Source: Candidatus Brocadiaceae bacterium (GTDB lineage: Bacteria > Planctomycetota > Brocadiia > Brocadiales > Brocadiaceae). Taken from it: a DNA stretch of 29,404 bases. A model generated the notes under the pieces. That model worked only from the letters and a program-made list of their open reading frames with translations. It made no database searches and was not told the origin of the DNA. How positions within the stretch are numbered: the first letter of the stretch is position 1; every line of letters starts with the position of its first letter. The stretch covers positions 1-29,404 of the forward strand of contig JACVXV010000012.1 in assembly GCA_015661205.1 (NCBI GenBank), given 5' to 3'. The position numbers and the translations under genes are program-made. Below, piece by piece: positions 4,424-29,404 of this stretch.

Positions 4424-4429
4424 CCTTTT

Positions 4430-12460: not shown

Positions 12461-13942
12461 ATGAAAAAACTTGTGTTGATTAATCCTCACCCCATCGGAA
12501 ACGTCGGGGAGGAAAACGTATCCGTACTAAACCAAATGCCGGTAAATCTCGGCTATCTCAAGGTGTTAACCCCAAAAAACTGGGACGTCGATATCATCGA
12601 CGAAACCCAGGAACCCGCTGTAGATGAAGCCACCGGCGATATTACCTTCGGAGGGGCGGACCTGGTGGGCGTCACCGCCGTCAGCTACCAGGCGCAACGG
12701 GCGTATCAGATTGCAGCCGCGTGCAGGAAACGGGGCATACCCGTCATAATGGGCGGCATCCATGCCACCAGCTTCCCGGAAGAGGCTGCAAAGTATGTGG
12801 ACTGCGTGGTGACCAGGGAGGCCGTTACTACCTGGGAAAAGATTATCAGCGATTTCGAGAAGGGGCAGCTCCAAAAGCGATATGACGGTGTGCTGACCCC
12901 CATGGAGCTTTACCACGGCCTGCGCCCCGATAGAAAATTTCTGCAAGACAAATACAAGTACCGCTATTCAGGGATTATTACCACCGCCGGATGTCCGTTT
13001 AGTTGTGAGTTCTGCTCCGTTCCGCAGTTCCAGGGAAAGAAGTACCGGGAAAGGCCGATAGAGGACGTGCTGGACGAGTTTGAGTCCATCAAGGGGCAAT
13101 TCCGTGGACTGATCCTGACGGATGAAAATTTTTACGGCCACAGCAAAAAGTCCAACGAGCGGGTGCGGGAGCTTTTCAAAGGGATGGTGGATAGGGGTAT
13201 TTACCAAAACTGGTTTGGCTTTACCTCGCTCAACATCTACCAAGACGACGAAACCCTTGAATACATGAAGAAGAGCGGGTGCGTCGGCGTGCTTATCGGC
13301 ATCGAATCCATCAACGAAGAAGCCCTGAAGACGATGAACAAGAACGTAAACCTGCGCATATCCATAGAAAACTACTTCGAGGCAATAGCCAACATCCGCA
13401 AGCATGGCTTGGCCGTTTGGGGAACGATGGTCTTCGGCAATGACGCCGATACCCCGGACACCTTTAAACAGGTTGCCGAATTTGTCCTTAATTCCCACGT
13501 AGACGTAATGACCTGCGGCATCTTATGCCCATTCATCAATACGCCGCTGTACCACCGTTTAAACAACGACGGCAGGCTTTTCAGGACGAATTTCCCGGCG
13601 GATTGGAAGTATTATACTTCGCACCACCTCACCTACATCCTCAAGAACATGACCCTCCAGGAGATCATCGACGGCTTCCAGTATCTGTACGATAAGATTT
13701 ATGACACCAATGTATTGCGGAAGCGGTTTCAGAATGCCAAAGAGGTTCTTGCGGACAATATGAACGCCGCCATGTTCGCATTCCGTGTAAACCTGGACTG
13801 GCAAAGCGTCTACCAGCACCTGATACAGAATTTGAAAGACTTGCAGACAACGGGGGTTTACGACGAGGTGTTGAAGCAACATAATCAGTCGAAAAAACAG
13901 GGGAGAACAGTGGATCTGAGGCCATTGGAGGTTTCCCCCTGA
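12461..13942 (+). CDS. B12-binding-domain radical SAM enzyme (class B)
   Basis: Has an N-terminal cobalamin-binding-type Rossmann segment (LVGVTAVSYQAQRAYQIAAACRKRGIPVIMGGIHAT) and a CxxxCxxC cluster motif (CPFSCEFCSV). Confidence 0.85.
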   Translation: MKKLVLINPHPIGNVGEENVSVLNQMPVNLGYLKVLTPKNWDVDIIDETQEPAVDEATGDITFGGADLVGVTAVSYQAQRAYQIAAACRKRGIPVIMGGIHATSFPEEAAKYVDCVVTREAVTTWEKIISDFEKGQLQKRYDGVLTPMELYHGLRPDRKFLQDKYKYRYSGIITTAGCPFSCEFCSVPQFQGKKYRERPIEDVLDEFESIKGQFRGLILTDENFYGHSKKSNERVRELFKGMVDRGIYQNWFGFTSLNIYQDDETLEYMKKSGCVGVLIGIESINEEALKTMNKNVNLRISIENYFEAIANIRKHGLAVWGTMVFGNDADTPDTFKQVAEFVLNSHVDVMTCGILCPFINTPLYHRLNNDGRLFRTNFPADWKYYTSHHLTYILKNMTLQEIIDGFQYLYDKIYDTNVLRKRFQNAKEVLADNMNAAMFAFRVNLDWQSVYQHLIQNLKDLQTTGVYDEVLKQHNQSKKQGRTVDLRPLEVSP

Positions 13943-14694: not shown

Positions 14695-15906
14695 ATGTCA
14701 AAGGTTGTCATCACCGGTTTAGGATTGGTTACACCCGTCGGCATCGGCGTCAAAAAAAGCTGGGAATCGTTCCTCCTGGGCAGGAGCGGCGCAAACGAGA
14801 TGAAGTCCTTTGACACCTCGAAATACAAGGTACACCGGTCTTGTGAGGTAAAAGACTTTGCCTTGGACGTCGAACTGGACAACCAGATAAAAGAAAACAC
14901 TATCCATAAATACGTCTACTACGCCGCCCGTGAAGCCTTACGGGAAAGTGGCCTGCCGGATGAAAAACACTGCGACCGTGAACGGTTCGGCGTCGCCATC
15001 GGGACGCTGGCCGCAGAACTGACCCCTTTTGAAAGATTGCTGAGACTAGACCTCTCGAAAAAAGATAACGGCTTCGACAAAACGGTGGCTGCCGTCTATC
15101 CGCCCAACTCCATCACCAACGTCCTTGCCCACTATTTCGGCTTTGAAGGGCCGACGCTGATCTCCCTGAATGCCTGCTCTTCCGGCAACCACGCCATCGC
15201 CTGGGCGTATGACCGCCTGATGGAAGGCAAGGTTGACGTGGTAATGGTCGGCGGGGGAGACATGATCCCCCAAACGGAGTTCACCCACTTCCACAACCTC
15301 AAGTCACTTGCGCCGGAACGGTGCCAACCCTTCGACAAAAACCGCCAGGGTCTCATGATTGGCGAGGGCGCCGGCATCCTCATCATGGAACGCTACGAAT
15401 TTGCGAAAAAACGCGGTGCGAAGATTATTGCCGAAATGGCCGGGTACGGGCTAAGCTGCGATGGATTCCACATGACCGCGCCCCATCCGGAAGGCGACGG
15501 CGCCGTGAAATGCATGAGCGATGCGATAAAAATGGCAGGCCTTTCGTCCACCGATATCGACTACATCAACGCACATGGCACAGGTACCCCGCACAACGAC
15601 AAATCGGAGACCATCGCCATAAAACGGGTATTCCAGGAACGCGCATACAAAATACCGTGCAGCTCCACAAAATCGATGATAGGCCACCTTATGGGCGCCG
15701 CCAGCGCCGTTGAATCGGTCATCTGCTGCCTGACATTGCGGCACGGGATGCTGCCCCCAACCATTAACTACGAAACACCCGATCCTGAATGCGATCTCGA
15801 CTATATACCGAACACCGCGCGGGAATTGAAGGTACGGCACGTCCTAAACAACTCCTTCGCATTCGGCGGTAATAATGCGACGACGATATTCAGCAGGGTG
15901 GAGTAA
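14695..15906 (+). CDS. Beta-ketoacyl-ACP synthase II-like ketosynthase (catalytically complete)
   Basis: The Cys-His-His triad is present: LNACSSGNHAI, INAHGTGTPHND, STKSMIGHLMGAAS. The C-terminus NSFAFGGNNATTIF is typical. Confidence 0.9.
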   Translation: MSKVVITGLGLVTPVGIGVKKSWESFLLGRSGANEMKSFDTSKYKVHRSCEVKDFALDVELDNQIKENTIHKYVYYAAREALRESGLPDEKHCDRERFGVAIGTLAAELTPFERLLRLDLSKKDNGFDKTVAAVYPPNSITNVLAHYFGFEGPTLISLNACSSGNHAIAWAYDRLMEGKVDVVMVGGGDMIPQTEFTHFHNLKSLAPERCQPFDKNRQGLMIGEGAGILIMERYEFAKKRGAKIIAEMAGYGLSCDGFHMTAPHPEGDGAVKCMSDAIKMAGLSSTDIDYINAHGTGTPHNDKSETIAIKRVFQERAYKIPCSSTKSMIGHLMGAASAVESVICCLTLRHGMLPPTINYETPDPECDLDYIPNTARELKVRHVLNNSFAFGGNNATTIFSRVE

Positions 15907-16028: not shown

Positions 16029-16910
16029 ATGACAAAAAACACACAACCACTTGCAGAGGTCTTTGGGCATTTCGTTGAGGATATATCTCCTAAAGCAAAT
16101 CGATACCGATCTGGTCGATTATGCCCATTCAATAACAAGGTTCCTAACTGTACCAAAGACAAGGCAAAAAATCCACTCGGCGTATGTAGCGTGTTTCACG
16201 ATGGAGTTCCGACAATAACATGTCCTATCAGGTTTAGGGAGGATTGGCTTATTACCGATGATGCAGCCTCTTTTTTCTTTGGAGATGGCGTCGCCTGGAG
16301 TTCACTTACAGAAGTTCGTCTGAACGACGCGACCGGGAAATCGGCCGGCAACATTGACGTTGTACTTGTCGCTTACGATGACAATGGAAAGGTTTTTGAT
16401 TTTGGTGCCCTGGAAATACAAGCGGTTTACATCTCCGGGAACGTCCGCGACCCCTTTGAATATTATATGACGAACCCAAAAGCTCACGCTCAAATGGACT
16501 GGTCAGCACAGCCAAATTACCCGCGACCAGATTATCTATCTTCTTCACGAAAACGTTTAGCACCTCAACTTCTCTATAAGGGTGGAATCCTTCATTCTTG
16601 GCGCAAGAAGACAGCCGTTGCATTAAACAGGAGTTTCTTTGAGACACTTCCGCCTTTGAAAACAATCAGCAAATCGAAGGCCGATATTTCTTGGCTTATA
16701 TACGATCTTCAGTTGGTCAAAGAGGAGGGACAATCAAGGTTCACACTAACAAAGACTGACGAAGTTTTTACGGAATTTGAGCCGGCCCTTCTAGCTATAA
16801 CGACTTCCTCACCGGGAAATATAGACGATTTTATAAACTTGCTTCAAGAGAAGCTTGATGAGCAACTTGAAACGCCGCCAAACAACAAAACAATTGAAAA
16901 GCCATTCTGA
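16029..16910 (+). CDS. NotI-family type II restriction endonuclease-like protein
   Basis: The N-terminus has a Cys-rich motif (CPFNNKVPNCTKDKAKNPLGVCSV...TCPIRFRED) of the kind found in the NotI family. A core D...E-x-Q/K-like motif reads GNIDVVLV...FGALEIQAVY. It is adjacent to a methyltransferase. Confidence 0.6.
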   Translation: MTKNTQPLAEVFGHFVEDISPKANRYRSGRLCPFNNKVPNCTKDKAKNPLGVCSVFHDGVPTITCPIRFREDWLITDDAASFFFGDGVAWSSLTEVRLNDATGKSAGNIDVVLVAYDDNGKVFDFGALEIQAVYISGNVRDPFEYYMTNPKAHAQMDWSAQPNYPRPDYLSSSRKRLAPQLLYKGGILHSWRKKTAVALNRSFFETLPPLKTISKSKADISWLIYDLQLVKEEGQSRFTLTKTDEVFTEFEPALLAITTSSPGNIDDFINLLQEKLDEQLETPPNNKTIEKPF

Positions 16911-16911
16911 C

Positions 16912-17859
16912 ATGAAAATATTCAGACAACAATCATTTTTCCCGGAATTGTGCGAGGCTGAAACACGTAAGCCGGTTAATGTCGCTTCTGTGCCGCAAAG
17001 AAGCCCATTTCGGTATCCGGGAGGGAAAACATGGTTTGTTCCAACGTTTCGTGACTGGATTAGAAATCAACATCCTAAACCGGAAATCCTGATCGAGCCG
17101 TTTGCAGGGGGAGGCATTATAAGTATCACCGCCTTGTTTGAGGAATTCGTCTCACGTGTCGTTATGGTTGAGATTGACGAGGATATCGCGGCTGTGTGGC
17201 AATCGGTGGTTGATGGACATGCGGGATGGCTTGCGAAAAGAATCCTTGATTTTGATCTGACCAAGGAATCAGTTATACAGGAAATATCGAAAACAGACGT
17301 TAGCGTCAGAGAGAAGGCGTTTCAAACCATTTTAAAAAACCGCACGTTTCACGGCGGTATATTGGCTGATGGCTCAGGCTTCTTAAAACACGGGGAAAAC
17401 GGCAAAGGAATCCGTTCCCGTTGGTATCCAGCCACCATTGCTAAGCGGTTCAACAATTTGGAACTCGTTGCTGATAGGATTGTTTTCCGTCAGGAAGACG
17501 GGTTTGAAGTCATGCAGGAGTATTCTCAACGCAATGACGTAGTATTCTTTATTGACCCGCCTTATACGGCCGGCGGAAAGAAGGCAGGCAAACGTCTTTA
17601 CCGTCACTTTTGCATAGACCATGAACGTTTATTCTCCTTATGTCAATCGATAAAAGGCGATTTCTTAATGACCTACGACAATGCGGATGAGGTTAAGACA
17701 ATGGCAAGGGCGCATGGCTTTCAGATGCGGCTTATTCCTATGAAGAACACCCACCATGCGGCAATGGAGGAACTGGTTATCGGTAAAAACCTGTCATGGA
17801 TGGATCGCTATGCAGCAGTGCATGAACCGTTTGCTGAATATAAAGTTAATGGCAAGTAA
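16912..17859 (+). CDS. Dam-like (D12 class) N6-adenine DNA methyltransferase
   Basis: Has the SAM motif FRYPGGKTWFVP and the catalytic motif FFIDPPYTAGG. The ATG at 16912 lies 1 nt after the nuclease stop. The track ORF start at 16855 overlaps the upstream gene and is less likely. Confidence 0.8.
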   Translation: MKIFRQQSFFPELCEAETRKPVNVASVPQRSPFRYPGGKTWFVPTFRDWIRNQHPKPEILIEPFAGGGIISITALFEEFVSRVVMVEIDEDIAAVWQSVVDGHAGWLAKRILDFDLTKESVIQEISKTDVSVREKAFQTILKNRTFHGGILADGSGFLKHGENGKGIRSRWYPATIAKRFNNLELVADRIVFRQEDGFEVMQEYSQRNDVVFFIDPPYTAGGKKAGKRLYRHFCIDHERLFSLCQSIKGDFLMTYDNADEVKTMARAHGFQMRLIPMKNTHHAAMEELVIGKNLSWMDRYAAVHEPFAEYKVNGK

Positions 17860-17911: not shown

Positions 17912-19828
17912 GTGCCTGTGAGCAACGAATTGACTTTTGAAACATTTGAAAAAGAATGGTTGTTAGATATTGTGTCTGAAAACCCGAGCACGATTGAACT
18001 AGGCAGACGGTTTTCAAAAAAACTGGTCAGCCAGTGGCTCGATTTTGCAGAGGATATCGAGTCTCCAGACGACGTTGTTTACTGTGACGGTACGGGTGAT
18101 GGGGGTATTGACATCGCGTGCTTACAGAGGGGTGATGATACCGAAGACAATTCTAACGGCGGTGACACATGGTATTTAGTTCAGAGTAAGTATGGGGCTG
18201 CTTTTGTCGGGACAAAAACTTTAATAGAAGAAGCGCAAAAGCTTATTGATACCATTGATGGGAAGAGGAATAATCTTTCATCGCTTGCAGCAAGCCTTGT
18301 TGAGAGACTTCAAACTTTTCGGAAGCAAGCATCTGAAAAAGACAAAATGGTTATCGTTTATGCTATACAAAGACCACTCTCTGAGGATGAAAGACGAGCA
18401 GTAGAAGACATTAAAGCAATGGGCAAGAATCGGCTTGGGTCTCTGTTTGATACGGATGTTGTTAGTCTCGAAACAATCTATCACAGGACGCTTGAGGAAA
18501 TCAGTCATATAAAAAAGACACAGGTCTTGATAACTGCTCACTTGGTTCCCTCTGGTGAAGAAATGCTTGTGGGTTCTGTTGGATTGCTTCAACTCTTTGA
18601 ATTTTTAAAGAATTACAAGGCAACAACTGGTGATATTGATATGCTTTATGAAAAGAATGTACGAAAGTTTCTTGGCAGTAGAAGAAAAGTAAACAAGGGA
18701 ATTGAAAATACTCTTTTGACAAAACCTGAAAGATTTGGACTCTACAATAACGGAATTACAATCGTGGTTGAGGAGTTTCAAAAGCTACCTAACAATATTG
18801 AATACGAACTGACTGAACCTTTTGTAGTCAATGGTTGTCAAACAACAAGGACGATTTGGGAAGTCTTGTATAGGAAACTTGAAGCAGGAGGCACTGGCAA
18901 AAATCCAGAACTGGAAACATGGAAAAGAAATCTTGGAAAAGGCATCGTGGTTATTAAAATAGTTAAGGTTGGAATAAGGGGCGATGAACTTCTTACTGAA
19001 ACCACAAGATATACGAACAGTCAGAATGCAGTAAGTGAAAAAGACTTCATAGCGCTTGAGAGTGATTTTCAAAAGTGGTCAAAAAACATGGCTTCCAAGT
19101 ACAATGTTTTTCTGGAAATCCAGCGAGGAGGTTGGGATTCCCAAAAAGCATACCAAAAACAAAACCCTGATACGAGGCAGTTTACTGAATGCATAAATGC
19201 CTTTGACTTGCTGAAGGTCTACGGTGCTGCGTGGTTAGGGGAGGCAGGTATTTCATTTGGGAAAAATCCACCCTTTGCCCCCGGAGGAAGCTTGTTTCAT
19301 AAAATCGTAAAGCAGGAAGACTTTGGTCTTGATGACTTATACTGTGCATTCCAATTATACAAGGCTGGAGGGCATTTCAAGTTTGGTCGTGGTGCAGAGA
19401 AACAACAACGAGGACAAACAAGGCATTTGTTTTACATGCTCACAGTTGAACTGCTTAAAGACTGCTTTATTGCGGCTGACAGGGTGGCAACAAACAAAAA
19501 TATTACCATCGCATTCTTGAATCTCTTCAAGCCCAAAAATGAGATGGCATTAAATGCATTGCTTGAATACTCAATCTCTATAGCTGACGATTATCTGACT
19601 CATGGGCACGAGTATTGTGTGTTTAAGGAACCAAAGTTTTTGGAAAAAGGCAGTGATTTAAATAGTTTTCTGAAATGGGAACAGCTTGGCAAAGGAAATG
19701 ACTCCACCCCCTTATTGAACAACCTTCTTGCACAGTATAAGATCGCCTTAAAGGGTGGCATAGGCGGTCAACCAAAATACAGAGATATGATAAGAGCCAT
19801 CATTCTCACTCCTGATACAGCGGAATAG
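17912..19828 (+). CDS. AIPR-family abortive-infection protein with an N-terminal Mrr/PD-(D/E)xK-like motif
   Basis: AIPR hallmarks are LYNNGITIVVEEF and VVNGCQTTRTIWEVL. The N-terminus, DGTGDGGIDIACL...WYLVQSKYG, resembles the Mrr-type D...Q-x-K core. It has a GTG start with GAGAGGGG upstream. Confidence 0.8.
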   Translation: MPVSNELTFETFEKEWLLDIVSENPSTIELGRRFSKKLVSQWLDFAEDIESPDDVVYCDGTGDGGIDIACLQRGDDTEDNSNGGDTWYLVQSKYGAAFVGTKTLIEEAQKLIDTIDGKRNNLSSLAASLVERLQTFRKQASEKDKMVIVYAIQRPLSEDERRAVEDIKAMGKNRLGSLFDTDVVSLETIYHRTLEEISHIKKTQVLITAHLVPSGEEMLVGSVGLLQLFEFLKNYKATTGDIDMLYEKNVRKFLGSRRKVNKGIENTLLTKPERFGLYNNGITIVVEEFQKLPNNIEYELTEPFVVNGCQTTRTIWEVLYRKLEAGGTGKNPELETWKRNLGKGIVVIKIVKVGIRGDELLTETTRYTNSQNAVSEKDFIALESDFQKWSKNMASKYNVFLEIQRGGWDSQKAYQKQNPDTRQFTECINAFDLLKVYGAAWLGEAGISFGKNPPFAPGGSLFHKIVKQEDFGLDDLYCAFQLYKAGGHFKFGRGAEKQQRGQTRHLFYMLTVELLKDCFIAADRVATNKNITIAFLNLFKPKNEMALNALLEYSISIADDYLTHGHEYCVFKEPKFLEKGSDLNSFLKWEQLGKGNDSTPLLNNLLAQYKIALKGGIGGQPKYRDMIRAIILTPDTAE

Positions 19829-20359: not shown

Positions 20360-21595
20360 ATGAAAAACAGAGTCGTTATCACAGGCATAGGCGTTGTATC
20401 TCCGATTGGATGCGGCAAGGAGGCGTTTTGGAACGGCCTTGTTGAGGGAAGGCAGGGCATAGCGCCGATGGCATCCCTTGACCTCTCCCCTTACCGATGC
20501 AAACTCGGCGGCGAGGTGAAAGACCTTAAACCCGAAGTATACCTCGGGAGCAAGGGACTCAAGTACCTGAACAAGGGAACCCGGTTCCTCGGCTCAGCCT
20601 CAAAGATGGCGCTGGACGACGCAAAACTGCCGCTGGACGGGTCGTTTGGCGACCGGATGGGCGTTGTCGTCGGATCGTCCCTGGGGAATTTCTCCGAGAC
20701 AACCGACTATTTTTACGAAATCATCAAAACCAGCCCATCCGAATTGTCGCCCATGATCAGCTACGACGTCGCCCTGAACTCTTCCATCAACTATGTCTCC
20801 GTCACCTTTAAAATGAAGGGAGTCGCGCGCACCATTTCATCCGGCTTTACGTCGAGCGCCGACGCCGTTGGGGACGCATTCAAGATGGTACAGCGCGGCA
20901 TGACAAAAATAATCGTCACCGGCGGAGTAGAGCAAATCTCCATAGACCTGTACCTGATATTTTACCTGCGCGGCCTGCTGTCAGGCGTAGACGGCGCAAA
21001 AGAGGCGTGCCTGCCCTTCGACAGCGCCCGAAACGGCTTTGTCATGGCCGAAGGCAGCTACATCGTCATCCTGGAAGAACTCCAGCACGCCCTCGACCGC
21101 GGCGCCCCTATTTACGCCGAGGTAAAGGGGTTCGGCAGTTCCTTCGTTGGTGGCAAGCAACACCCGCCGGAAGTGCGGGTAGCCCGCGCGGAGAAGGCCA
21201 TGCGCGCAGCCGTGGAAGACGCCGGGATAAAGAACGAAGACGTCCAGTTAATAAGCGCAAACGCAAACGGCTGCAAGCTGCAAGACGCAGTAGAAGCAAA
21301 GGCCATCCAGTCCCTCTTCGGCGCAAATGGCGGTGGCATCCCCGTCTCCGCAATCAAATCAAACCTGGGCGAGTCGTACGGCGCAGCCGGTACCGCACAA
21401 ATCATTTCCACCCTCATGTCAATCAACACCGGCCAAATACCGCACATCATCAACCACAGCACCAACGACCCTGAAATCAACCTAAACCTCATCCGCGAAA
21501 AACCCGCAAAAAAAGACGTCGGGAACGCATTGATAAACAATATGGATTATGATGGGAATAATGCTTGTTTGGTGGTGGGTAAGTTCTGTAAGTAA
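20360..21595 (+). CDS. Ketosynthase paralog lacking the catalytic triad (KS-beta / chain-length-factor-like)
   Basis: The KAS fold is clear (VVITGIGVVSPIG, VTGGVE, KSNLGESYGAAG). By hand alignment to FabF motifs, the active-site Cys is Phe (TISSGFTSSADAVG, codon 20846-20848), the first His is Asn (ISANANGCKLQD) and the second His is Glu (KSNLGESYG). Confidence 0.85.
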   Translation: MKNRVVITGIGVVSPIGCGKEAFWNGLVEGRQGIAPMASLDLSPYRCKLGGEVKDLKPEVYLGSKGLKYLNKGTRFLGSASKMALDDAKLPLDGSFGDRMGVVVGSSLGNFSETTDYFYEIIKTSPSELSPMISYDVALNSSINYVSVTFKMKGVARTISSGFTSSADAVGDAFKMVQRGMTKIIVTGGVEQISIDLYLIFYLRGLLSGVDGAKEACLPFDSARNGFVMAEGSYIVILEELQHALDRGAPIYAEVKGFGSSFVGGKQHPPEVRVARAEKAMRAAVEDAGIKNEDVQLISANANGCKLQDAVEAKAIQSLFGANGGGIPVSAIKSNLGESYGAAGTAQIISTLMSINTGQIPHIINHSTNDPEINLNLIREKPAKKDVGNALINNMDYDGNNACLVVGKFCK

Positions 21596-21700: not shown

Positions 21701-24700
21701 ATGAATTCAGACCTGACCTTTATCACCAACGAAGAAAATAGAAGCCTGTTAGAAAGATTTAGGATACTTATTAAAGATACCCGACTCTTTGATGTGCTTG
21801 TTGGTTATTTCTACACAAGCGGGTTTCACGCACTTTATAAATCACTCGAAAACACTGAAAAAATCAGAATTTTGGTTGGTATAAATACTAATAAACAAAC
21901 TGTTGAACTCATTCAAAAAGCAAAAGTTGAACAACCAACCCTTCAGTATTCGCATGCAGAAGTAAAGGAACAGCTAGAGGTTTCTGTTACAAAAGAAATT
22001 GAAGACTCAGAGGATAGCCCTGCCGTTGAAGAAGGCATCCTAAAGTTTATTGAATGGCTAAAAAGCGGAAAATTAGAAATCAGGGCATACCCAACTGAAA
22101 ACATTCACGCAAAGGTTTACATTATGACCTTTGTTGAAGGTGACAGGGATATAGGGAGAGTCATTACAGGGTCAAGCAACTTCACTCAATCAGGCCTCAT
22201 TGACAACTTTGAGTTTAATGTCGAATTAAAAAACAGGGCAGATTACGAATTTGCATTGCAAAAATTCAACGAACTATGGAAAGACGCTGTTGATGTAAAG
22301 GAACGATATATTGATACAATTCAAATAAAAACCTGGCTGAACAATACCATTACCCCTTACGAATTGTACCTCAAATTTTTATATGAGTATTTCAAAGAGG
22401 AACTCAATCAGGCAGATGAAGTATTTTTGAACTATCTTCCTCAAGAATTCAAAAAACTGGCATATCAGGAGCAGGCCGTTTTAAATGCTAAAAAGATACT
22501 TCTGGAATACGGCGGTGTTTTTATCTCTGATGTTGTAGGGTTAGGCAAGACATACATATCTGCAATGCTGGCAGGGCAGCTTGACGGCAGAACACTTGTT
22601 ATTGCCCCACCTGTATTGCTTGAAAGATCAAACCCCGGCTCCTGGACTAATGTGTTTTCCGATTTCAAGGTACCAGCCGACTTTGAATCGCTCGGCAAAT
22701 TGGATGACCTTATTAACAGAGGGACAGAGAAATACACCAATATTATTGTTGATGAGGCACACCGTTTTAGAACGGAAACAACGATTACCTATGAGAAATT
22801 GGCGGAAATCTGCCGTGGCAAAAGGGTTGTTCTTGTAACGGCGACTCCCTATAACAATGCGCCAAAAGACATCCTAAGCCTTTTAAAGCTATTCCAGAAA
22901 GCCAGAAAAAGCACTATACCAAATCTGCCTGATATGGAAGGCTTTTTCAATAACCTGGATAAAAAATTGAAAAAACTGGACAGGCAGAAAGATTATGTCA
23001 AATACATAAGTACTGTGAAAGAAAATGCGCTGGAACTTCGTGAAAAAGTCCTCAAATATTTAATGGTTCGCCGTACCCGAACGGAAATCGAAAAATATTT
23101 TGGTGAAGACATAAAGAGCCAAAACCTCAAATTCCCTGATGTTGAAAAACCAGTCCCCCTTTTTTATGAACTCAATGATACGGAGGATGAAGTCTTCAAC
23201 AAAACCATTGAATTGATAGCGCAAAAATTCAAATACGCCCGTTATATGCCCATGATTTATTATGAAGGTAAAGTTGATCAGCTTGAAAAGCAGTCCCAGC
23301 GAAACATGGGCAAATTTATGAAAATCCTGCTGGTAAAGCGTCTTGAAAGCAGTTTTTTTGCATTTAAAAATTCGGTGGATAGATTCCTGCGTTCTTACGA
23401 GATGTTTATAAAAGAGCTTGATAACGGAAATGTTTATGTGAGTAAAAAGCATTCTCATAAAATATTTGAACTGTTGGAGAGTGATGACGATGAAGCCGTC
23501 CAGCGATTGATAGATGAGGGCAAGGCTGAAAGATATGTAAGCACTGAATTTAGAGAAGCCTTAAGAAATGATTTACAGCACGACCATGACATTCTCCTAG
23601 AGATTAAAAAACTGTGGCATCATATTGACCGCGACCCGAAGCTTTTAAAATTTTTGGCGGAATTGTCTAAAAACCCGGTTTTAAAAGCAAATCATCTGAT
23701 TATCTTTACAGAATCAAAGGAAACCGCAAACTATCTGTTCAAAAACATCAGTCAACACTACCCGGGTAAAGTACTCTGTTTTACAGGGGATTCAGGCGAG
23801 GCAACGCGCGATATGGTAATTGAGAATTTTGACGCCAGATCACGTCATCCTAAAGAAGATTATCGTATACTGGTCACTACTGAAGTATTGGCTGAAGGTG
23901 TTAACCTGCACCGCTCTAATACGGTGATAAATTACGATATCCCCTGGAATCCTACGCGCATGATGCAGCGGGTAGGGCGTGTCAACCGTGTTGATACATC
24001 ATTTGAAACGATACATACCTTTAATTTCTTCCCGACCAAACAATCAAATGACCAGATAAAACTGAAAGAAGCAGCAGAGGCTAAAATCAATGCCTTTTTA
24101 ACCCTGCTTGGAGGTGACGCAGAACTTTTGACTGAGGGTGAACCCATTGGCTCGCATGAACTATTTAATCGGCTGATTTCCAAACAGACGCTGGAAGGCG
24201 AGGAGAGTGCAGTGGAAAGCGAATTGAAATATCTCCATATTATTAAAGAGATTCGCGATAAGTCCCCCGATCTTTTTGAAACGATAAAACGTCTCCCCAA
24301 AAAGGCGCGCACTGCAAAAACCCTGACAGGGTTCTCAACCCTGTCAGGGTTGATTACCTACTTCAGACGGGGAAAATTGCAGAAATTTTTTGAAACAAAA
24401 CATGAAGGTGGGGCTGAAGAAATGGATTTTCTGACTGCGGCTAAACTGCTGGAGAGTACTCCTGATACGATGAAGGAAAAACTCCCCGAACAGTTTTACG
24501 ACCTCCTGGATAAAAATAAAGAGGCATTTGTTTTAGCGACAACAGAAGAAATGCCTCAGCAAAGTTACAGAGGTGGACGTGACAGCTCTGCAAATATCCT
24601 TAAAATATTGAAGGCCACCATAAGAAACACCCAAAAACTGACAGAAGACCAGGAACTATACCTAAAAAAAGTTCTCATCCAGCTTGAAGAAGGCGGACTG

Positions 24701-25483
24701 CCCAAACAGACGGCAATGCAAACACTGAAAGCCCTGAATGCGCTTCAGAATGAAATCGTTAATCCATTCAAGGTACTGGCGGTTCTTCAGACCCATATTC
24801 CGAAAAAACTTCTGGAAGAACACTATGCAGAACAGAACCCTGTGGTATTTGGCAAGCGGGAAGTTATACTCTCATTATATTTAGCAGGAAAACCCTGTCA
24901 GGGTTATTGGAGAAAGGCAATGAGCACAACAGCCACGCCGTTGTTACCAGGGAACTGGTATCATATTTATAATCGGGGTATCAATGGCGAAACTCTTTAC
25001 CACACTGATGCAAACTACCAATACTTTCTGCACTTGCTCGCCAAATATGTTTTCCACACAGCAAAAGTCTATGCGTATTGTCTTATGAAGAACCATTTTC
25101 ATTTGTTGGTTTCTATTCGTGATGATACAAAAAGAAAGCCACATCTCTATTTTTCAGACATGTTTAACAGCTATACCCAAGGGCTTAACAAACAACTGGG
25201 ACGGACGGGAAGTCTCTTCGAACGCCCCTTTCGCCGTAAGGTGATTTCATCTGAAAATCAGCGAGTTCAGGTAACTTTCTATATACACAATAATCCCCGG
25301 CATCATGGCATAATGAATGACTTTGCTGAGTACCCGTACTCCTCATACAGGGCTGTGCTGTCGAACGCACCAACGAAAATAGAGCGCGAAGCAGTGCTTT
25401 CGTGGTTTGGTGGGCGTGATGGTTTCTTGGCATATCATAGCATTGGTTGCGATGACATTTCAGATAATCTAATATTGGAGTAA
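21701..25483 (+). CDS. PLD(HKD)-nuclease / SNF2-family helicase, read through in frame into a RAYT-like HUH transposase domain
   Basis: The N-terminal HKD motif is NIHAKVYIM...GRVITGSSNFTQSG. Helicase motifs are I (VGLGKTY), II (IIVDEAHRFR), III (LVTATPYNN) and the C-terminal lobe (LVTTEVLAEGVNLH, PWNPTRMMQRVGRVNRV). The last 187 codons are a Y1/HUH transposase (see the mobile element feature). Confidence 0.85.
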   Translation: MNSDLTFITNEENRSLLERFRILIKDTRLFDVLVGYFYTSGFHALYKSLENTEKIRILVGINTNKQTVELIQKAKVEQPTLQYSHAEVKEQLEVSVTKEIEDSEDSPAVEEGILKFIEWLKSGKLEIRAYPTENIHAKVYIMTFVEGDRDIGRVITGSSNFTQSGLIDNFEFNVELKNRADYEFALQKFNELWKDAVDVKERYIDTIQIKTWLNNTITPYELYLKFLYEYFKEELNQADEVFLNYLPQEFKKLAYQEQAVLNAKKILLEYGGVFISDVVGLGKTYISAMLAGQLDGRTLVIAPPVLLERSNPGSWTNVFSDFKVPADFESLGKLDDLINRGTEKYTNIIVDEAHRFRTETTITYEKLAEICRGKRVVLVTATPYNNAPKDILSLLKLFQKARKSTIPNLPDMEGFFNNLDKKLKKLDRQKDYVKYISTVKENALELREKVLKYLMVRRTRTEIEKYFGEDIKSQNLKFPDVEKPVPLFYELNDTEDEVFNKTIELIAQKFKYARYMPMIYYEGKVDQLEKQSQRNMGKFMKILLVKRLESSFFAFKNSVDRFLRSYEMFIKELDNGNVYVSKKHSHKIFELLESDDDEAVQRLIDEGKAERYVSTEFREALRNDLQHDHDILLEIKKLWHHIDRDPKLLKFLAELSKNPVLKANHLIIFTESKETANYLFKNISQHYPGKVLCFTGDSGEATRDMVIENFDARSRHPKEDYRILVTTEVLAEGVNLHRSNTVINYDIPWNPTRMMQRVGRVNRVDTSFETIHTFNFFPTKQSNDQIKLKEAAEAKINAFLTLLGGDAELLTEGEPIGSHELFNRLISKQTLEGEESAVESELKYLHIIKEIRDKSPDLFETIKRLPKKARTAKTLTGFSTLSGLITYFRRGKLQKFFETKHEGGAEEMDFLTAAKLLESTPDTMKEKLPEQFYDLLDKNKEAFVLATTEEMPQQSYRGGRDSSANILKILKATIRNTQKLTEDQELYLKKVLIQLEEGGLPKQTAMQTLKALNALQNEIVNPFKVLAVLQTHIPKKLLEEHYAEQNPVVFGKREVILSLYLAGKPCQGYWRKAMSTTATPLLPGNWYHIYNRGINGETLYHTDANYQYFLHLLAKYVFHTAKVYAYCLMKNHFHLLVSIRDDTKRKPHLYFSDMFNSYTQGLNKQLGRTGSLFERPFRRKVISSENQRVQVTFYIHNNPRHHGIMNDFAEYPYSSYRAVLSNAPTKIEREAVLSWFGGRDGFLAYHSIGCDDISDNLILE
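24319..24351. repeat. REP-like hairpin dimer copy 1 (inside the helicase ORF, in frame)
   Basis: Sequence is AACCCTGACAGGGTT-ctc-AACCCTGTCAGGGTT, translated as TLTGFSTLSGL. Confidence 0.85.
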
Positions 25484-25530
25484 CTTTACCGTCCGTTAAC
25501 CCTGACAGGGTTTGAAACCCTGTCAGGGTT
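24891..25530 (+). mobile_element. REPtron-like unit: REP half-site, RAYT-type HUH/Y1 transposase ORF (24920-25483), REP dimer
   Basis: AACCCTGTCAGGGTT sits at 24891-24905, GGAGA at 24913-24917 and an ATG at 24920. The protein has NWYHIYNRG, the HUH motif NHFHLLV and the Tyr motif FYIHNNPRHHG, and is 187 aa long. A REP dimer follows at 25498-25530, 15 nt after the stop. Confidence 0.65.
25498..25530. repeat. REP-like hairpin dimer copy 3 (intergenic)
   Basis: Sequence is AACCCTGACAGGGTT-tga-AACCCTGTCAGGGTT, with perfect 15-nt arms. Confidence 0.85.
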
Positions 25531-25550
25531 CAACAGGAATAAAAAATACT

Positions 25551-26930
25551 ATGGATAAACATCAAGCTCAAAACATTATCAGAGAAACCTTTGAAAACTC
25601 TTTTGATAAAGAGAGGTTTGTCGGTTTTATTAAAAACCTTTTAAAACGTATCGAAGAAGATCGTATCCCGCAGCGGCAGGGACAATTCATCCCTGAAGCT
25701 TACAGACAATATATCAGCACACTTGAAAGAATAGGTAAATTCAATGACGGTGAAAACAGAATTGATATCCTTATCATCAAACTCCAAAAAGAGACCTCCC
25801 TTGAACGCGCCCGCACCATGCAGAGAAACTTTGTTGCTGGATATTTACAGGGCAAATACGGTAGTTCAAATGAAAAAGAAGCGGCGCTTGTTGCCTTTGT
25901 ATCGCCCGATGAGAAAGACTGGCGGTTTTCACTGGTAAAGATGGACTACAAGTTTGAACAGACTCAAACTGGCATAATGAAGGTAAAAGACGAATTCACG
26001 CCTGCGCGGAGATGGTCGTTCCTTGTGGGTAAAAATGAAACCAGTCACACTGCCCAGAACAGACTGGTTAACATGCTGGCAAATGACGAACACAGTCCAA
26101 CCCTTGCCGAACTGGAACAGGCATTTGACATTGAAACCGTTACCAAAGAATTTTTCATTAAATACCGTGAGCTTTTTATCCGCACAAAAGAGGAACTGGA
26201 CAAAGTGGTAGAAAACGATGCGAAAATCAAAGCAGATTTTGAGGCAAAAAGTGTAAACGTCGTTGACTTTGCCAAAAAACTTCTTGGACAGATTGTATTC
26301 TTATATTTCCTGCAAAAAAAAGGGTGGTTTGGCGTTGGGCGTGATGCCGAATGGGGCACTGGCTCTAAACACTTTTTGCGTGAACTCTTTGGGAAAAGGC
26401 ACGGCGACTATAAAAATTTCTTCAATGACATTCTGGAACCACTCTTTTATGAAGCTTTGCGTAATGACCGCAGTCATGATGACCACTATTACAGCCAATT
26501 TAACTGCAAAATCCCGTTCTTAAACGGCGGTCTTTTTGATCCCATTGGCAATAACGGTGGATATGATTGGATTAAAACTGATATTCATCTGCCGGACAGC
26601 CTGTTCTCTAATAAAAATAAAACCAAAGAAGGCGATGAGGGCGATGGCATTCTGGATATTTTTGACCGCTACAACTTTACCGTCAGAGAAGACGAGCCGC
26701 TGGAAAAGGAAGTTGCCATTGACCCCGAACTTCTGGGCAAGGCGTATGAAAAGTTCAATGCCATCCGCCCTGACAACTTTGAGGAATATAAAAAGGCATT
26801 AAAGAGCGGGAAAAAAGGTGAAGAAAGCAAATTCAACAAGCAATACGGCGTTTACTACGCCCCCCGTGAGATTGTCCACTATATGTGCCAGCAGATACCT
26901 GCACACAGAATTGATCACTCCCCACCCTGA
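25551..26930 (+). CDS. Eco57I/PglX-like N6-adenine methyltransferase, N-terminal fragment (ends in a stop inside a REP copy)
   Basis: The ATG at 25551 (MDKHQAQNIIRETF) lies just after the REP dimer. The fragment contains FLYFLQKKGW, NGGLFD and the conserved YYAPREIVHYMCQQ block. Its TGA at 26928-26930 is the ctGAca of the REP arm. Confidence 0.75.
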   Translation: MDKHQAQNIIRETFENSFDKERFVGFIKNLLKRIEEDRIPQRQGQFIPEAYRQYISTLERIGKFNDGENRIDILIIKLQKETSLERARTMQRNFVAGYLQGKYGSSNEKEAALVAFVSPDEKDWRFSLVKMDYKFEQTQTGIMKVKDEFTPARRWSFLVGKNETSHTAQNRLVNMLANDEHSPTLAELEQAFDIETVTKEFFIKYRELFIRTKEELDKVVENDAKIKADFEAKSVNVVDFAKKLLGQIVFLYFLQKKGWFGVGRDAEWGTGSKHFLRELFGKRHGDYKNFFNDILEPLFYEALRNDRSHDDHYYSQFNCKIPFLNGGLFDPIGNNGGYDWIKTDIHLPDSLFSNKNKTKEGDEGDGILDIFDRYNFTVREDEPLEKEVAIDPELLGKAYEKFNAIRPDNFEEYKKALKSGKKGEESKFNKQYGVYYAPREIVHYMCQQIPAHRIDHSPP

Positions 26931-28977
26931 CAGGGTTCCAAACCCTGTCAGGGTAGAAGACATCAAGGCCCTGATACACCTCGGTGAACATATTAGCGAA
27001 AATGAAGAAATAGCGCTGATCAAAGGACGAAAAATTCTAGAGGGCAAAAAGAAATCTTCGGGTTACAAATCACAATTGCCCGAAATCATACGCAAGAATG
27101 CCGTATTAATTGATCAGAAACTGGCGGACATCACCGTCTGTGATCCGGCAGTTGGTTCCGGCGCATTTCCTGTGGGCATGATGAGCGAAATTGTAAAGGC
27201 AAGAAGTGTGCTAACGACCTTTATTGTAACTCAAGCGTCCCTGTCTGCATGTGGAGACGCACAGGCAGGCAGCTTGAGTCCAGAAACACTGACAGGGTTC
27301 CAAACCCTGTCAGTGCTAAGGTCAGACCCACCGAGAACAACCTATGATTTCAAACGGCAATGCATTGAAAAATCTCTTTACGGTGTGGATATTGACCCCG
27401 GCGCTGTGGAAATTGCAAAACTTCGGCTGTGGCTATCGCTTGTTGTAGATGAAGATGACATAAAGAACATCAAGCCCCTGCCCAATCTGGATTATAAAAT
27501 TGTCTGCGGGAATTCGTTGCTGGGAGTGGAGAAAAACCTGTTTAACGATCATCTTTTTTTAAAACTGGAAAAAATAAAACCGCTCTACTTCAACGAAACC
27601 AACCCTACAAAAAAGCAGGACTTTAAAAAGCAGATTGATGAACTGATAAGCCAGATTACCAATGGCCATAAAGAATTTGATTTTGAGATTTATTTTTCCG
27701 AAGTGTTTCATCATAAAAAAGGATTTGGCATTGTGATTGCCAACCCACCGTATATCAGGGCCGAAGAATTGGGTGATCTGAAAATACACCTTAAGGCTAC
27801 CTATTCCGTATTCGCCCCTGCCGGTGATATTTTCTCTTACTTTTACGAGAAGTCTTTTAATATTCTGAAAACTCAAGGTGTATTTTGCTTTATCAATAAT
27901 GCGTTTGATAAAACAACTGCTGGAAAAACTTTGCGGGATTACGTTGCGAAAAAATGTTCACTCAAGAAATATGTGGATTTTAAATCTGTCGTTGTTTTTG
28001 AGGGTACGATAACTTACCCTATAATTCTACTTGCAACGAAATCAATGCCTCAAGAGACATTTGAATATCTCAAAGTTACCGAAGACACACTCATGAAGTT
28101 TAATTTTGGTGGGGATATTGTTTATACACCTTTGCCAAGGTCGGCACTGAAGCAGTCTTCATGGAGTTTTGATCATCAGGGGCAAGCTGAGCTATCAGAA
28201 AAGATAGCTAAACATAAGAAGTTGAGAGAAGTATTTGGAAAGTGTTATCGCGGTATTATTACCGGCATAAATGATGCCTTTATAGTAGAAAAAGATTTAG
28301 GCAACATCAAACACTTAAAACCTGTTTTTGAGGGTAAGGACATCAAGAAATGGTTAACACCAGCCATTGGCAAGAAAATGATTGTCTTTGAGAATAAGTC
28401 AACGCGCACGGTTTATAACGGGCAAAACGAAGCGAAAGCGTTTAAAGCTATTCAGGTGGCTTTTCCAGAAATCATGAATCATCTTGAACCCTTTGCCGAA
28501 GCAGCTAAAAAGCGATATGACAAGGGTGAATACTGGTGGGAACTTAGAAACTGTGCTTATTACGACCTTTTTGGAAGACCAAAGATAATTTTTCCCAATC
28601 TTCAAAGCACCAATAAGTTTGCTTATGATACGAGCGGAACGTACCTCAATGCCCCGGCGGTTTTCTTACCGACAGATGCAAAATGGTTATTGGGTCTTCT
28701 AAACTCAAAAGTGGTCTGGTATTTCTTGAAGACAATTTGTGTTGTTAGAAACGGTGGATTTATTGAGGTAAAACCTCAATATTTCGAGCAAATTTCAATA
28801 CCATCCCTCAAAGACACGGATAAGAAACAACTAGATTCTCTCGTTGACCAAATCCTCACTGCAAAACAAAACGTTCCCGATGCCAACACGTCGGCGCTGG
28901 AAAAACAGATTGACCAGATGGTTTACAAACTTTACGACCTCACGCCTGATGAGATTGAAATTGTGGAGGGCAAATAA
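26818..28977 (+). CDS. Eco57I/PglX-like N6-adenine methyltransferase, C-terminal fragment (catalytic motifs plus target-recognition domain) in the +1 frame
   Basis: Motif I is VCDPAVGSGAFPVGM, followed by YGVDIDPGAVEIAKLRLWLSLV and motif IV VIANPPYIRAEEL. A TaqI/Eco57I-type C-terminal domain (YWWELRNCAYYDLFGRPKIIFPN, GGFIEVKPQYFEQISIP, LYDLTPDEIEIVEG) follows. The first ~25 codons of the track ORF overlap the upstream fragment and are probably not translated as such. Confidence 0.8.
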   Translation: MKKANSTSNTAFTTPPVRLSTICASRYLHTELITPHPDRVPNPVRVEDIKALIHLGEHISENEEIALIKGRKILEGKKKSSGYKSQLPEIIRKNAVLIDQKLADITVCDPAVGSGAFPVGMMSEIVKARSVLTTFIVTQASLSACGDAQAGSLSPETLTGFQTLSVLRSDPPRTTYDFKRQCIEKSLYGVDIDPGAVEIAKLRLWLSLVVDEDDIKNIKPLPNLDYKIVCGNSLLGVEKNLFNDHLFLKLEKIKPLYFNETNPTKKQDFKKQIDELISQITNGHKEFDFEIYFSEVFHHKKGFGIVIANPPYIRAEELGDLKIHLKATYSVFAPAGDIFSYFYEKSFNILKTQGVFCFINNAFDKTTAGKTLRDYVAKKCSLKKYVDFKSVVVFEGTITYPIILLATKSMPQETFEYLKVTEDTLMKFNFGGDIVYTPLPRSALKQSSWSFDHQGQAELSEKIAKHKKLREVFGKCYRGIITGINDAFIVEKDLGNIKHLKPVFEGKDIKKWLTPAIGKKMIVFENKSTRTVYNGQNEAKAFKAIQVAFPEIMNHLEPFAEAAKKRYDKGEYWWELRNCAYYDLFGRPKIIFPNLQSTNKFAYDTSGTYLNAPAVFLPTDAKWLLGLLNSKVVWYFLKTICVVRNGGFIEVKPQYFEQISIPSLKDTDKKQLDSLVDQILTAKQNVPDANTSALEKQIDQMVYKLYDLTPDEIEIVEGK
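26924..26954. repeat. REP-like hairpin dimer copy 4 (at the break between the two MTase fragments)
   Basis: Sequence is ACCCTGACAGGGTT-cca-AACCCTGTCAGGGT. It reads HPDRVPNPVRV in the downstream frame and gives a TGA stop in the upstream frame. Confidence 0.85.
27230..27278. repeat. Second, unrelated imperfect palindrome immediately 5' of REP copy 5
   Basis: CTCAAGC-gtccctgtctgc...gcacaggcaggca-GCTTGAG has perfect outer 7-nt arms and imperfect inner arms. It lies inside the MTase ORF. Confidence 0.4.
27287..27315. repeat. REP-like hairpin dimer copy 5 (degenerate, inside the MTase ORF, in frame)
   Basis: Sequence is CACTGACAGGGTT-cca-AACCCTGTCAGTG, translated as TLTGFQTLSVL. Compensatory changes (CC to CA, GG to TG) keep the arms complementary. 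Confidence 0.8.
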
Positions 28978-29044
28978 ACAGGTATGATTTATCATGTTGA
29001 CATAACAAGTGATGGTCATTCCACTTTTGTTAGAGGATTACTTC

Positions 29045-29404
29045 ATGACCAATAATACAGATAGTCCCATGCTTGAATCTGCATATAAATCTGTTCAGGA
29101 CTGCTTCGCTTCGGCCCCCGTCATTGTATTGGGGAGTGGCCACTCATGTGCTTTTGATATCCCTGGCATGCCACAACTCACGGACTATATACGTTCTGAA
29201 GTTCCCAGAGAAGTAGCACCTAATGACAATCAAACGTGGAAGACATTTGAGGAAAAGCTCCAGAGTCTATCTCTTGAGGCTGCGCTCCGCGAAATCCAGT
29301 TAAGCCAGCGGCTAACTAATCTCATAACCCAAGTTCAACAAATTCGTCACAAAAAAGGTAAAAAACGAGCAAAAAACGGGTATGCAAAAGTCATAACCCC
29401 TTGA
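29045..29404 (+). CDS. Hypothetical protein with a weakly SIR2-like N-terminal pattern
   Basis: AGAGGA lies 7 nt upstream of the ATG at 29045. VIVLGSGHSCAFDIPGMPQLTDYI loosely fits the G-x-G-x-S...G-x-P...L pattern of SIR2_2-type defence proteins. The ORF stops exactly at the window end after a Lys-rich tail, so it may be truncated or frameshifted. Confidence 0.3.
   Translation: MTNNTDSPMLESAYKSVQDCFASAPVIVLGSGHSCAFDIPGMPQLTDYIRSEVPREVAPNDNQTWKTFEEKLQSLSLEAALREIQLSQRLTNLITQVQQIRHKKGKKRAKNGYAKVITP

Follow-up and report, generated by a model that had tools for sequence, protein, structure and literature searches.

The stretch of DNA analysed here, which we call the window, comprises 29,404 nucleotides of a Candidatus Brocadiaceae bacterium (contig JACVXV010000012.1 of assembly GCA_015661205.1, positions 1–29,404, forward strand). 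Near its end lie two adjacent genes, one encoding an HKD phospholipase D (PLD)-type nuclease fused to an SNF2-like helicase and the other an N6-adenine methylase. From their sequences and by analogy with characterised enzymes, we think it probable, at roughly 0.6, that the region holds a mobile two-gene cassette resembling a restriction–modification (R-M) system, in which the methylase would direct restriction by the HKD-helicase. The original prediction, made from the sequence alone, had proposed such a two-polypeptide module; the domains of both proteins were confirmed, and the genes proved to be adjacent across related loci.

The two genes of the cassette

Comparison of the window's proteins with Pfam, PADLOC and NCBIfam (the last with its curated cut-offs) and with homologues showed that the first gene (21701–24883, forward strand) encodes a protein of about 1061 amino acids. 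It lies in a single open reading frame (ORF) from 21701 to 25483, which contains gene 1 of the original prediction; the nuclease-helicase in that frame is real, and the last 187 codons belong to a separate transposase gene described below. Pfam placed a PLDc_2 domain at amino acids 30–193 of this ORF (21788–22279, forward strand; E = 6.6e-11), followed by SNF2-rel_dom (E = 5.4e-10), Helicase_C (E = 2.3e-20) and also ResIII. All six motifs quoted in the prediction were located: HAKVYIM (the HKD motif, 22106–22126), GSSNFT (22169–22186), GLGKT (22538–22552), DEAH (22751–22762), TATPYNN (22838–22858) and QRVGRVNRV (23966–23992). The nuclease region holds a single HxK motif, the helicase motifs span 22538 to 23992, and the C-terminal region is helical. 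The best-scoring model from the defence libraries was PADLOC PDLC01075, 'HKD+Snf2' (E = 1e-44, amino acids 13–799), and the DrmD, BrxH, HmaA, DpdE and 'PLD_Helicase' models of PADLOC covered just the helicase lobes.

This protein is strongly conserved. The best 120 homologues in the protein collection were 77–90% identical and typically about 1063 amino acids long, and they came from Brocadia, Kuenenia, Desulfobacterota, Nitrospirota, Bacteroidota, Marinimicrobia and one Methanosarcinales archaeon; across bacterial and archaeal phyla the amino acid identity was 70–90%. An alignment of 79 family members contained 452 columns that were at least 97% conserved, and the window protein deviated at only four of them (E/D, V/I, M/L and I/L), all conservatively and in a number equal to the median of the other sequences. 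The helicase moiety of the window copy is thus undecayed and still intact. A sequence search of the PDB returned no close solved relative, and E. coli genomes contained no homologue at the DNA level. Relatives on plasmids were all below 60% identity (the best listed reached 49% over 38% of the query), and those in phages were only about 25% identical.

The second gene starts at the ATG at 25551 and is split into two ORFs (25551–26930 and 26818–28977). The 5′ fragment (25551–26930, forward strand) encodes an N-terminal alpha/beta domain specific to the family (amino acids 1–185) and a helical region preceding the methylase, and corresponds to positions 1–444 of the 1148 in the PADLOC model REase_MTase_IIG (PDLC03596; E = 1.5e-235). 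The 3′ part, in another frame (26897–28977, forward strand), encodes a gamma-class N6-adenine methylase core and a TaqI_C-type target-recognition domain (TRD); its ORF corresponds to positions 564–1144 of the same model (E = 1.2e-118) and matched Eco57I (E = 7.9e-35), TaqI_C (E = 1.8e-12), MmeI_Mtase and N6_Mtase in Pfam. It carries the motifs DPAVGSGAF (27142–27168) and NPPY (27742–27753). The original identification of gene 2 as a gamma N6-adenine methylase with a TaqI/Eco57I-type TRD therefore stands, although the site of the lesion had not been located. DNA alignment with four related loci (L005, L007, L008 and L009) showed that 11 nucleotides (consensus GnCTGATnAAT) are missing right after CAGCAGA at about 26896, and this deletion causes the change of reading frame, which was also seen by tblastn. 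A doublet of repetitive extragenic palindromes (REPs) was considered as the cause of the frameshift and rejected, because the alignment places the deletion 25 nucleotides upstream of it; this doublet and a 108-nucleotide insert further on are both in frame and occupy linkers that differ from one homologue to another. The window's methylase gene is therefore a pseudogene, unless its two fragments somehow act together.

Intact members of the methylase family have a conserved body and a hypervariable recognition end. Among 39 full-length sequences, mean pairwise identity was 0.57 over amino acids 1–50, 0.67–0.85 over amino acids 51–450 and 0.74–0.82 over amino acids 551–650, which include motif I, and it was 0.18–0.29 over the TRD (amino acids 751–1100). 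Such a pattern would be expected when specificity diversifies. The domain formed by the first 185 amino acids was found only at the N terminus of proteins of 1030–1340 amino acids (799 clusters at E ≤ 1e-3), and family members are annotated in their sources as Eco57I-domain methylase or PglX. We also observed that the last ~100 nucleotides of the methylase gene (28882–28995), which encode a conserved tail ('...YDLTPDEIEIVEG'), are similar to sequence at several distinct places in L001, L005, L006 and L007. These matches hint at extra copies of the TRD tail or at other R-M genes nearby, possibly cassettes for TRD exchange.

Conservation of the gene pair

To survey related loci, we scanned a one-genome-per-species collection (185,579 species) with the helicase, which gave 394 matching stretches; in the protein collection there were at least 7992 homologues at E ≤ 1e-10. 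The best 80 of the 394 stretches (68–88% identical), together with L001 and L002, made up the 82 loci analysed, and Spirochaetota, Omnitrophota, Parcubacteria and Zixibacteria were also among the 80. An N terminus of the methylase family lay downstream of the helicase on the same strand at 75 of the 82 loci. Among the seven loci without it, six offer no more than 1195 nucleotides of DNA beyond the helicase, and the seventh, L080, retains a TRD remnant only. The pair was thus found at 75 of the 76 loci with enough downstream DNA, always in the order helicase then methylase. Co-occurrence of this helicase with this methylase family had been set beforehand as a test of the original prediction, and the count bears out the tie between them.

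The genes are separated by 11–18 nucleotides at 42 junctions; some other junctions are overlapping or longer. In Syntrophobacter fumaroxidans MPOB (locus L002; CP000478.1:486079-509339), an intact pair, with a helicase of 1086 and a methylase of 1147 amino acids, lies 1 nucleotide apart, flanked by housekeeping and toxin–antitoxin genes. When all flanking ORFs were clustered, no family within 4 kb recurred in more than 5 of the 38–49 loci with enough flank; the commonest downstream families were RhuM (5 loci) and AAA_13 (4 loci). The strict pairing, the lack of a conserved third gene and the absence of DrmA, DrmB, DUF499 and DUF3780 together indicate a self-contained two-gene module.

The longer junctions hold an inserted gene: a Schlafen AlbA_2 + HATPase_c_4 gene in about 17 loci, a Bro-N or ORF6N gene in about 6, and a PIN or REP-associated tyrosine transposase (RAYT) gene in others. 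This insertion slot recurs in L006, L012, L013, L016, L018, L020, L021, L026, L028, L029, L030, L038, L045, L046, L048, L068, L074 and other loci. Schlafen/AlbA_2, Bro-N/ORF6N, PIN, RhuM and AAA_13 genes are often found as accessory genes within type I R-M operons. The Hma operon is likewise a hotspot for the insertion of defence genes (PMC11232893).

Mobile elements and neighbouring genes

An invasion of the cassette by REPs and a RAYT had gone unnoticed in the original prediction. The palindrome pattern ACCCTGWCAGGGT occurs eight times in the window, all within 24320–27320, against 0.02 occurrences expected by chance. The RAYT gene (24920–25483, forward strand; 187 amino acids) has its own ATG at 24920, with GGAG upstream, and matched NCBIfam NF047646 with E = 1.3e-12 and 47.8 bits, which is under the curated cut-off of 80. 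Its product has the HUH motif HFHLLV (25094–25111) and the tyrosine motif YIHNNP (25280–25297), so that an HUH/Tyr Y1 transposase lies among clustered REP palindromes. It is 87% identical in protein sequence to the product of a separate 187-amino-acid gene at the same position in L001. That orthologue, in the locus of the closest relative (L001 13267–13830), has HFYLLV in place of HFHLLV and may therefore be inactive.

The palindromes lie at five positions, all on the forward strand. A doublet at 24317–24353 is in frame in a variable linker of the helicase, where it encodes TLTGFSTLSG, and a single REP (24889–24905) stands at the 3′ end of the helicase gene in place of the natural stop. A second doublet (25496–25532) separates the RAYT stop from the methylase start, and a third (26921–26957), the one next to the 11-nucleotide deletion, is in frame in a variable methylase linker. 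The last is part of the 108-nucleotide composite insert (27226–27333; a hairpin plus a REP doublet at 27283–27319), which lies in frame between methylase motif I and YGVDID. Helicase homologues end in '...GKREVILSLYLxGE' and a stop, and the window reads 'LYLAGKPCQGYW...', with the REP following LYLAG. Because the REP at 24889–24905 replaced the stop codon, the helicase ORF runs in frame into the RAYT ORF (1260 amino acids in all); this fusion ORF had no match in public assemblies.

The palindromes are shared with relatives. The doublet inside the helicase stands in place of a short linker of variable sequence and is present too in L001, L004, L006 and L007; that four other anammox-type loci have it indicates an old insertion that is tolerated. 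Between 21700 and 26752, the window aligns colinearly with L001 at 85% nucleotide identity, RAYT gene included. In five anammox-type loci of 12–23 kb each (L001, L004, L006, L007 and L008), REPs are confined to the helicase–methylase cassette, at positions matching those in the window. In several cases a REP doublet is read in frame as part of an apparently intact protein (TLTGFSTLSG). At the site of the composite insert, tblastn showed that L009 has no insert and that L005 has a different one; these short repeat-derived inserts (L005 12862–12949; window 27226–27333) differ yet occupy the same methylase loop, in frame. Another member of the family, P0165, has a peptide resembling LSACG..AQAG in its N-terminal domain. 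This suggests that some loops of the methylase family may tolerate insertion of miniature inverted-repeat transposable elements.

Downstream of the methylase, the last ORF of the window (29045–29404) had been described in the prediction as having a weak SIR2-like pattern. The SIR2 identity is correct and the match is not weak (PADLOC SIR2 PDLC04087, E = 7.5e-23), and the end of an insertion sequence (IS) within this ORF had been missed. The first 94–95 codons of SIR2 occupy 29045–29328 (forward strand), and homology to the SIR2 of L008 stops at about 29328. The last 75 nucleotides of the window (29330–29404, forward strand) recur in one metagenome contig, L084, directly upstream of a gene for a 637-amino-acid DDE_Tnp_1 transposase (3215–5250, minus strand). 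The stop in homology and the recurrence of the 75 nucleotides before a transposase gene together show that an IS element interrupts SIR2 and extends past the end of the window. The L084 contig, the one match when metagenomes were scanned with the final bases of the window, carried no downstream defence genes.

The prediction had also raised the possibility that SIR2 is a third effector component of the module. We found SIR2-like sequence after the methylase only in L008 (86% amino acid identity) and, weakly, in L021, of about 75 related loci. In L008, a SIR2 gene of 360 amino acids (E = 3.4e-116) is followed directly by a 587-amino-acid HerA (E = 1.4e-242; Pfam DUF87 and HerA_C). SIR2-HerA (Nezha) is a known two-gene defence system. 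The window SIR2 resembles it in its strong match to the SIR2 model and in the HerA directly downstream of its orthologue in L008, and differs in being cut by the IS after about 95 codons, so that any HerA would lie beyond the window. Since the L008 orthologue is followed by HerA, the window SIR2 probably belongs to a separate SIR2-HerA system; its occurrence at 2 of about 75 loci and this HerA partner rule it out as a third component of the cassette.

Upstream, the window contains a B12-binding radical SAM gene (12461–13942) and two beta-ketoacyl-synthase paralogues (14695–15906 and 20360–21595). Between these paralogues lie genes for a NotI-family endonuclease (16029–16910), a D12-class methylase (16855–17859) and an AIPR/AbiU protein (17912–19828), so that these defence genes seem to have inserted into a cluster for lipid synthesis. 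In public assemblies, the neighbouring ketoacyl-synthase gene matched only one contig, of 6.9 kb, which ends inside the helicase gene. A scan for promoters and terminators gave a result no better than chance. The region is a small defence island under erosion by mobile elements.

A proposed methylase-directed nuclease-helicase

Type ISP enzymes such as LlaGI and LlaBIII carry nuclease, motor, methylase and TRD on one polypeptide, with a nuclease of the Mrr-type PD-(D/E)xK class. The cassette has the same domains in the same order (nuclease, superfamily 2 (SF2) motor, gamma N6-adenine methylase and a single TRD), and an asymmetric site and ATP-dependent cleavage would be expected of both. It differs in consisting of two polypeptides, in the window and at all 75 loci, in its SNF2-like motor, in the extra N-terminal domain of its methylase and in its nuclease, which is PLDc_2/HKD and not Mrr-type. 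This comparison bears out the earlier description of a type ISP set divided between two genes, in which a PLD nuclease substitutes for Mrr. That description had also held that no characterised system matches the layout exactly. We likewise found no experimental study of this layout. A characterised relative whose effector has the same N-terminal HKD-helicase arrangement, MANTIS (also Gao_RL, Hma or BR type 2, a DUF499-centred BREX-related system; MtsA–D), had been missed.

The PLD-helicase of MANTIS, MtsD, is a dimer with one PLD active site, and it is the methylase that steers both modification and restriction in that system (bioRxiv 10.64898/2026.09.23.753747). The cassette shares with it an N-terminal single-HKD nuclease fused to an SF2/Snf2-type helicase (PMC12839542), a paired N6-adenine methylase with a specificity-setting TRD, an R-M-like character and an operon that tolerates inserted defence genes. 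By contrast, the cassette is without the DUF499 AAA+ loader (MtsA) and the small DUF3780 protein (MtsB); genes for neither were present in the window, and no flanking gene recurred in more than 5 of the 38–49 related loci with enough flank. Its methylase is of the Eco57I/MmeI/PglX type with the family-specific N-terminal domain. The helicase scored 142 bits against NCBIfam phospholipD_antiphage (NF042964), for which the cut-off is 1100, and therefore belongs to a different family from the MANTIS-type PLD-helicase, with the same layout.

Class 1 DISARM likewise combines an SNF2-type helicase, an N6-adenine methylase and a PLD domain. In the cassette, however, the PLD domain is fused to the helicase, DrmA and DrmB (DUF1998) are absent, and the scores against DISARM DrmD models fell far below the cut-offs (131 bits against 610 for NF038317 and 79 against 950 for NF038318). 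No DrmA or DrmB gene was found among the window ORFs, as the prediction had noted, and no conserved flanking gene in the 38–49 related loci; together with the DrmD score, this lack of a recurrent flanking gene rules out ordinary class 1 DISARM. The type IV enzyme SauUSI and the NgoAVII and CglI systems also couple a PLD nuclease to an SF2 ATPase, with a single HKD per chain that implies a dimeric site. SauUSI differs in recognising modified DNA by its own TRD, with no methylase, and CglI and NgoAVII differ in having nuclease and motor on different proteins and separate methylases.

The cassette would work as follows. In the intact homologues, the hypervariable C-terminal TRD of the ~1150-amino-acid methylase would read a short asymmetric site, in which one adenine on one strand would be methylated, and the conserved N-terminal region of the methylase would dock or recruit the ~1063-amino-acid helicase-nuclease. 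The SNF2-like motor would then move along unmodified duplex using ATP. PLD nucleases such as Nuc and BfiI build one active site from two HKD motifs. As each helicase chain has one HKD motif, a single PLD active site would require a pair of chains, and the HKD domains, brought together by translocation, would cut unmodified DNA. Restriction would therefore depend on recognition by the methylase and would probably also require that sites communicate, as in type ISP enzymes, type III enzymes and MANTIS. In the window, the frameshifted methylase makes the copy almost certainly inactive for both modification and recognition. An intact helicase-nuclease beside a broken methylase fits a nuclease that would be unable to find its targets without the methylase, and a very recent inactivation would look the same.

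One alternative is that the methylase is a self-sufficient type IIG enzyme with an N-terminal nuclease, and that the HKD-SNF2 protein, rather than being the nuclease of the system, acts as an accessory or second-line effector. The methylase resembles type IIG/IIL enzymes (Eco57I and MmeI) and BREX PglX in its core, its TaqI_C/MmeI-like TRD and the hypervariability of that TRD; its top profile hidden Markov model over the full length is PADLOC REase_MTase_IIG, and a related Prevotella intermedia protein was called type IIG by REBASE-style annotation (PMC5608340). In an AlphaFold model of amino acids 1–448 (mean predicted local distance difference test score (pLDDT) 75), the N-terminal alpha/beta domain is well folded (mostly 80–95), and its modelled beta-beta-beta-alpha-beta order is compatible with a restriction-endonuclease-like fold. 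However, Foldseek found nothing in the PDB below E = 0.03 for this model, and amino acids 1–448 had no Pfam match even at E < 5, neither MmeI_N nor a nuclease. The residues conserved in 110 diverse N-terminal domains (R60, D72, R88, R92, N93, W124-R125-F126-S127, R154, S156, G160, E163 and H166-T167-A168) are mostly Arg, Ser, His and Trp, with no invariant acidic/lysine triad and no conserved (D/E)xK signature. Nothing in these results points to a nuclease in the methylase chain, although it may contain a divergent one. The methylase also differs from type IIG enzymes and PglX in its obligate helicase-nuclease partner and in the absence of other BREX genes, and a type IIG enzyme would leave the pairing with an HKD nuclease-helicase at 75 of 76 loci unexplained. 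We regard this alternative as unlikely.

Somewhat less likely still is that the helicase-nuclease acts alone, as a type IV (SauUSI-like) or general anti-phage enzyme, beside an unrelated or protective orphan methylase. SauUSI has the same PLD plus SF2 helicase architecture (bioRxiv 10.64898/2026.09.23.753747), and the helicase is kept while the methylase is truncated in the window and at 15 of the 56 loci in which a stop codon ends the methylase ORF (the other 41 are at least 1000 amino acids long). Against this stand the near-obligate adjacency, the overlapping or 11–18-nucleotide junctions and the co-conserved methylase N terminus, all of which point to a two-subunit enzyme, and amino acids 801–1061 of the helicase had no Pfam match and hence no recognisable TRD. 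The least probable alternative, a reduced or degenerate class 1 DISARM or MANTIS/Hma/BR type 2 system with its other genes lost or elsewhere, draws on partial matches of the helicase to DrmD, HmaA and PLD-helicase models and on the MtsD-like layout (PMC12839542; bioRxiv 10.64898/2026.09.23.753747), and is opposed by the sub-cut-off scores, the absence of DUF1998/DrmA, DUF499 and DUF3780 genes from the window, the lack of any flanking gene in more than 5 of 38–49 loci and an Eco57I/MmeI-type methylase with only a partial match to DrmMI.

Several points weigh against a methylase-directed cassette. We infer cleavage, translocation and the helicase–methylase contact by analogy. Among the best 150 relatives of the methylase N-terminal domain there was no helicase–methylase fusion of about 2200 amino acids, so that Rosetta-stone support is lacking. 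AlphaFold modelled the full-length helicase poorly (pLDDT 50), and the Foldseek matches of that model (Chd1, INO80, CSB and RapA) back the label SNF2-like only weakly. The loci were chosen by best helicase match, which biases the set towards intact helicases and precludes a fair comparison of the decay rates of helicase and methylase, and the 15 truncated methylases of 56 may partly reflect errors in the assembly of metagenome-assembled genomes. Literature on the exact two-gene layout consisted of passing mentions, with no experimental study found. One paper, missed by the original prediction, mentions in passing that a coding sequence with PLD (cd09178) and SNF lies upstream of Cj0031-like type II R-M genes (PMC9881135), and in P. 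intermedia an SNF2/RAD54 helicase lies beside type IIG-like genes, one of which methylates GGYGAB (PMC5608340).

More tentatively than the methylase-directed cassette itself, and at somewhat less than even odds, the intact homologues may constitute a distinct class of ATP-dependent R-M systems, a 'split type ISP' or 'minimal MANTIS', in which an Eco57I/MmeI-type methylase-TRD would directly load the HKD-SNF2 motor-nuclease with no AAA+ loader, and which would have spread near-unchanged across phyla with TRD swapping and a conserved insertion slot. The window copy mainly illustrates the erosion of a defence island by REP/RAYT and IS elements. The cassette is common, with 394 stretches in the 185,579 species and at least 7992 helicase homologues, and because its genes are annotated only as 'helicase-related protein' and as 'Eco57I-domain methylase', 'PglX' or 'type IIG', it is probably mislabelled in inventories of defence systems. 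New specificities could come from its hypervariable TRD, which is carried on a near-invariant chassis. The family is widespread and would represent ATP-dependent, methylase-directed restriction in a new layout. If intact copies restrict DNA as proposed here, no simpler combination of a PLD nuclease-helicase with a site-reading methylase would be known, and as a two-gene system the cassette could reveal how unmodified sites pass from methylase to translocating nuclease, which is still unsettled for MANTIS, BREX and DISARM.

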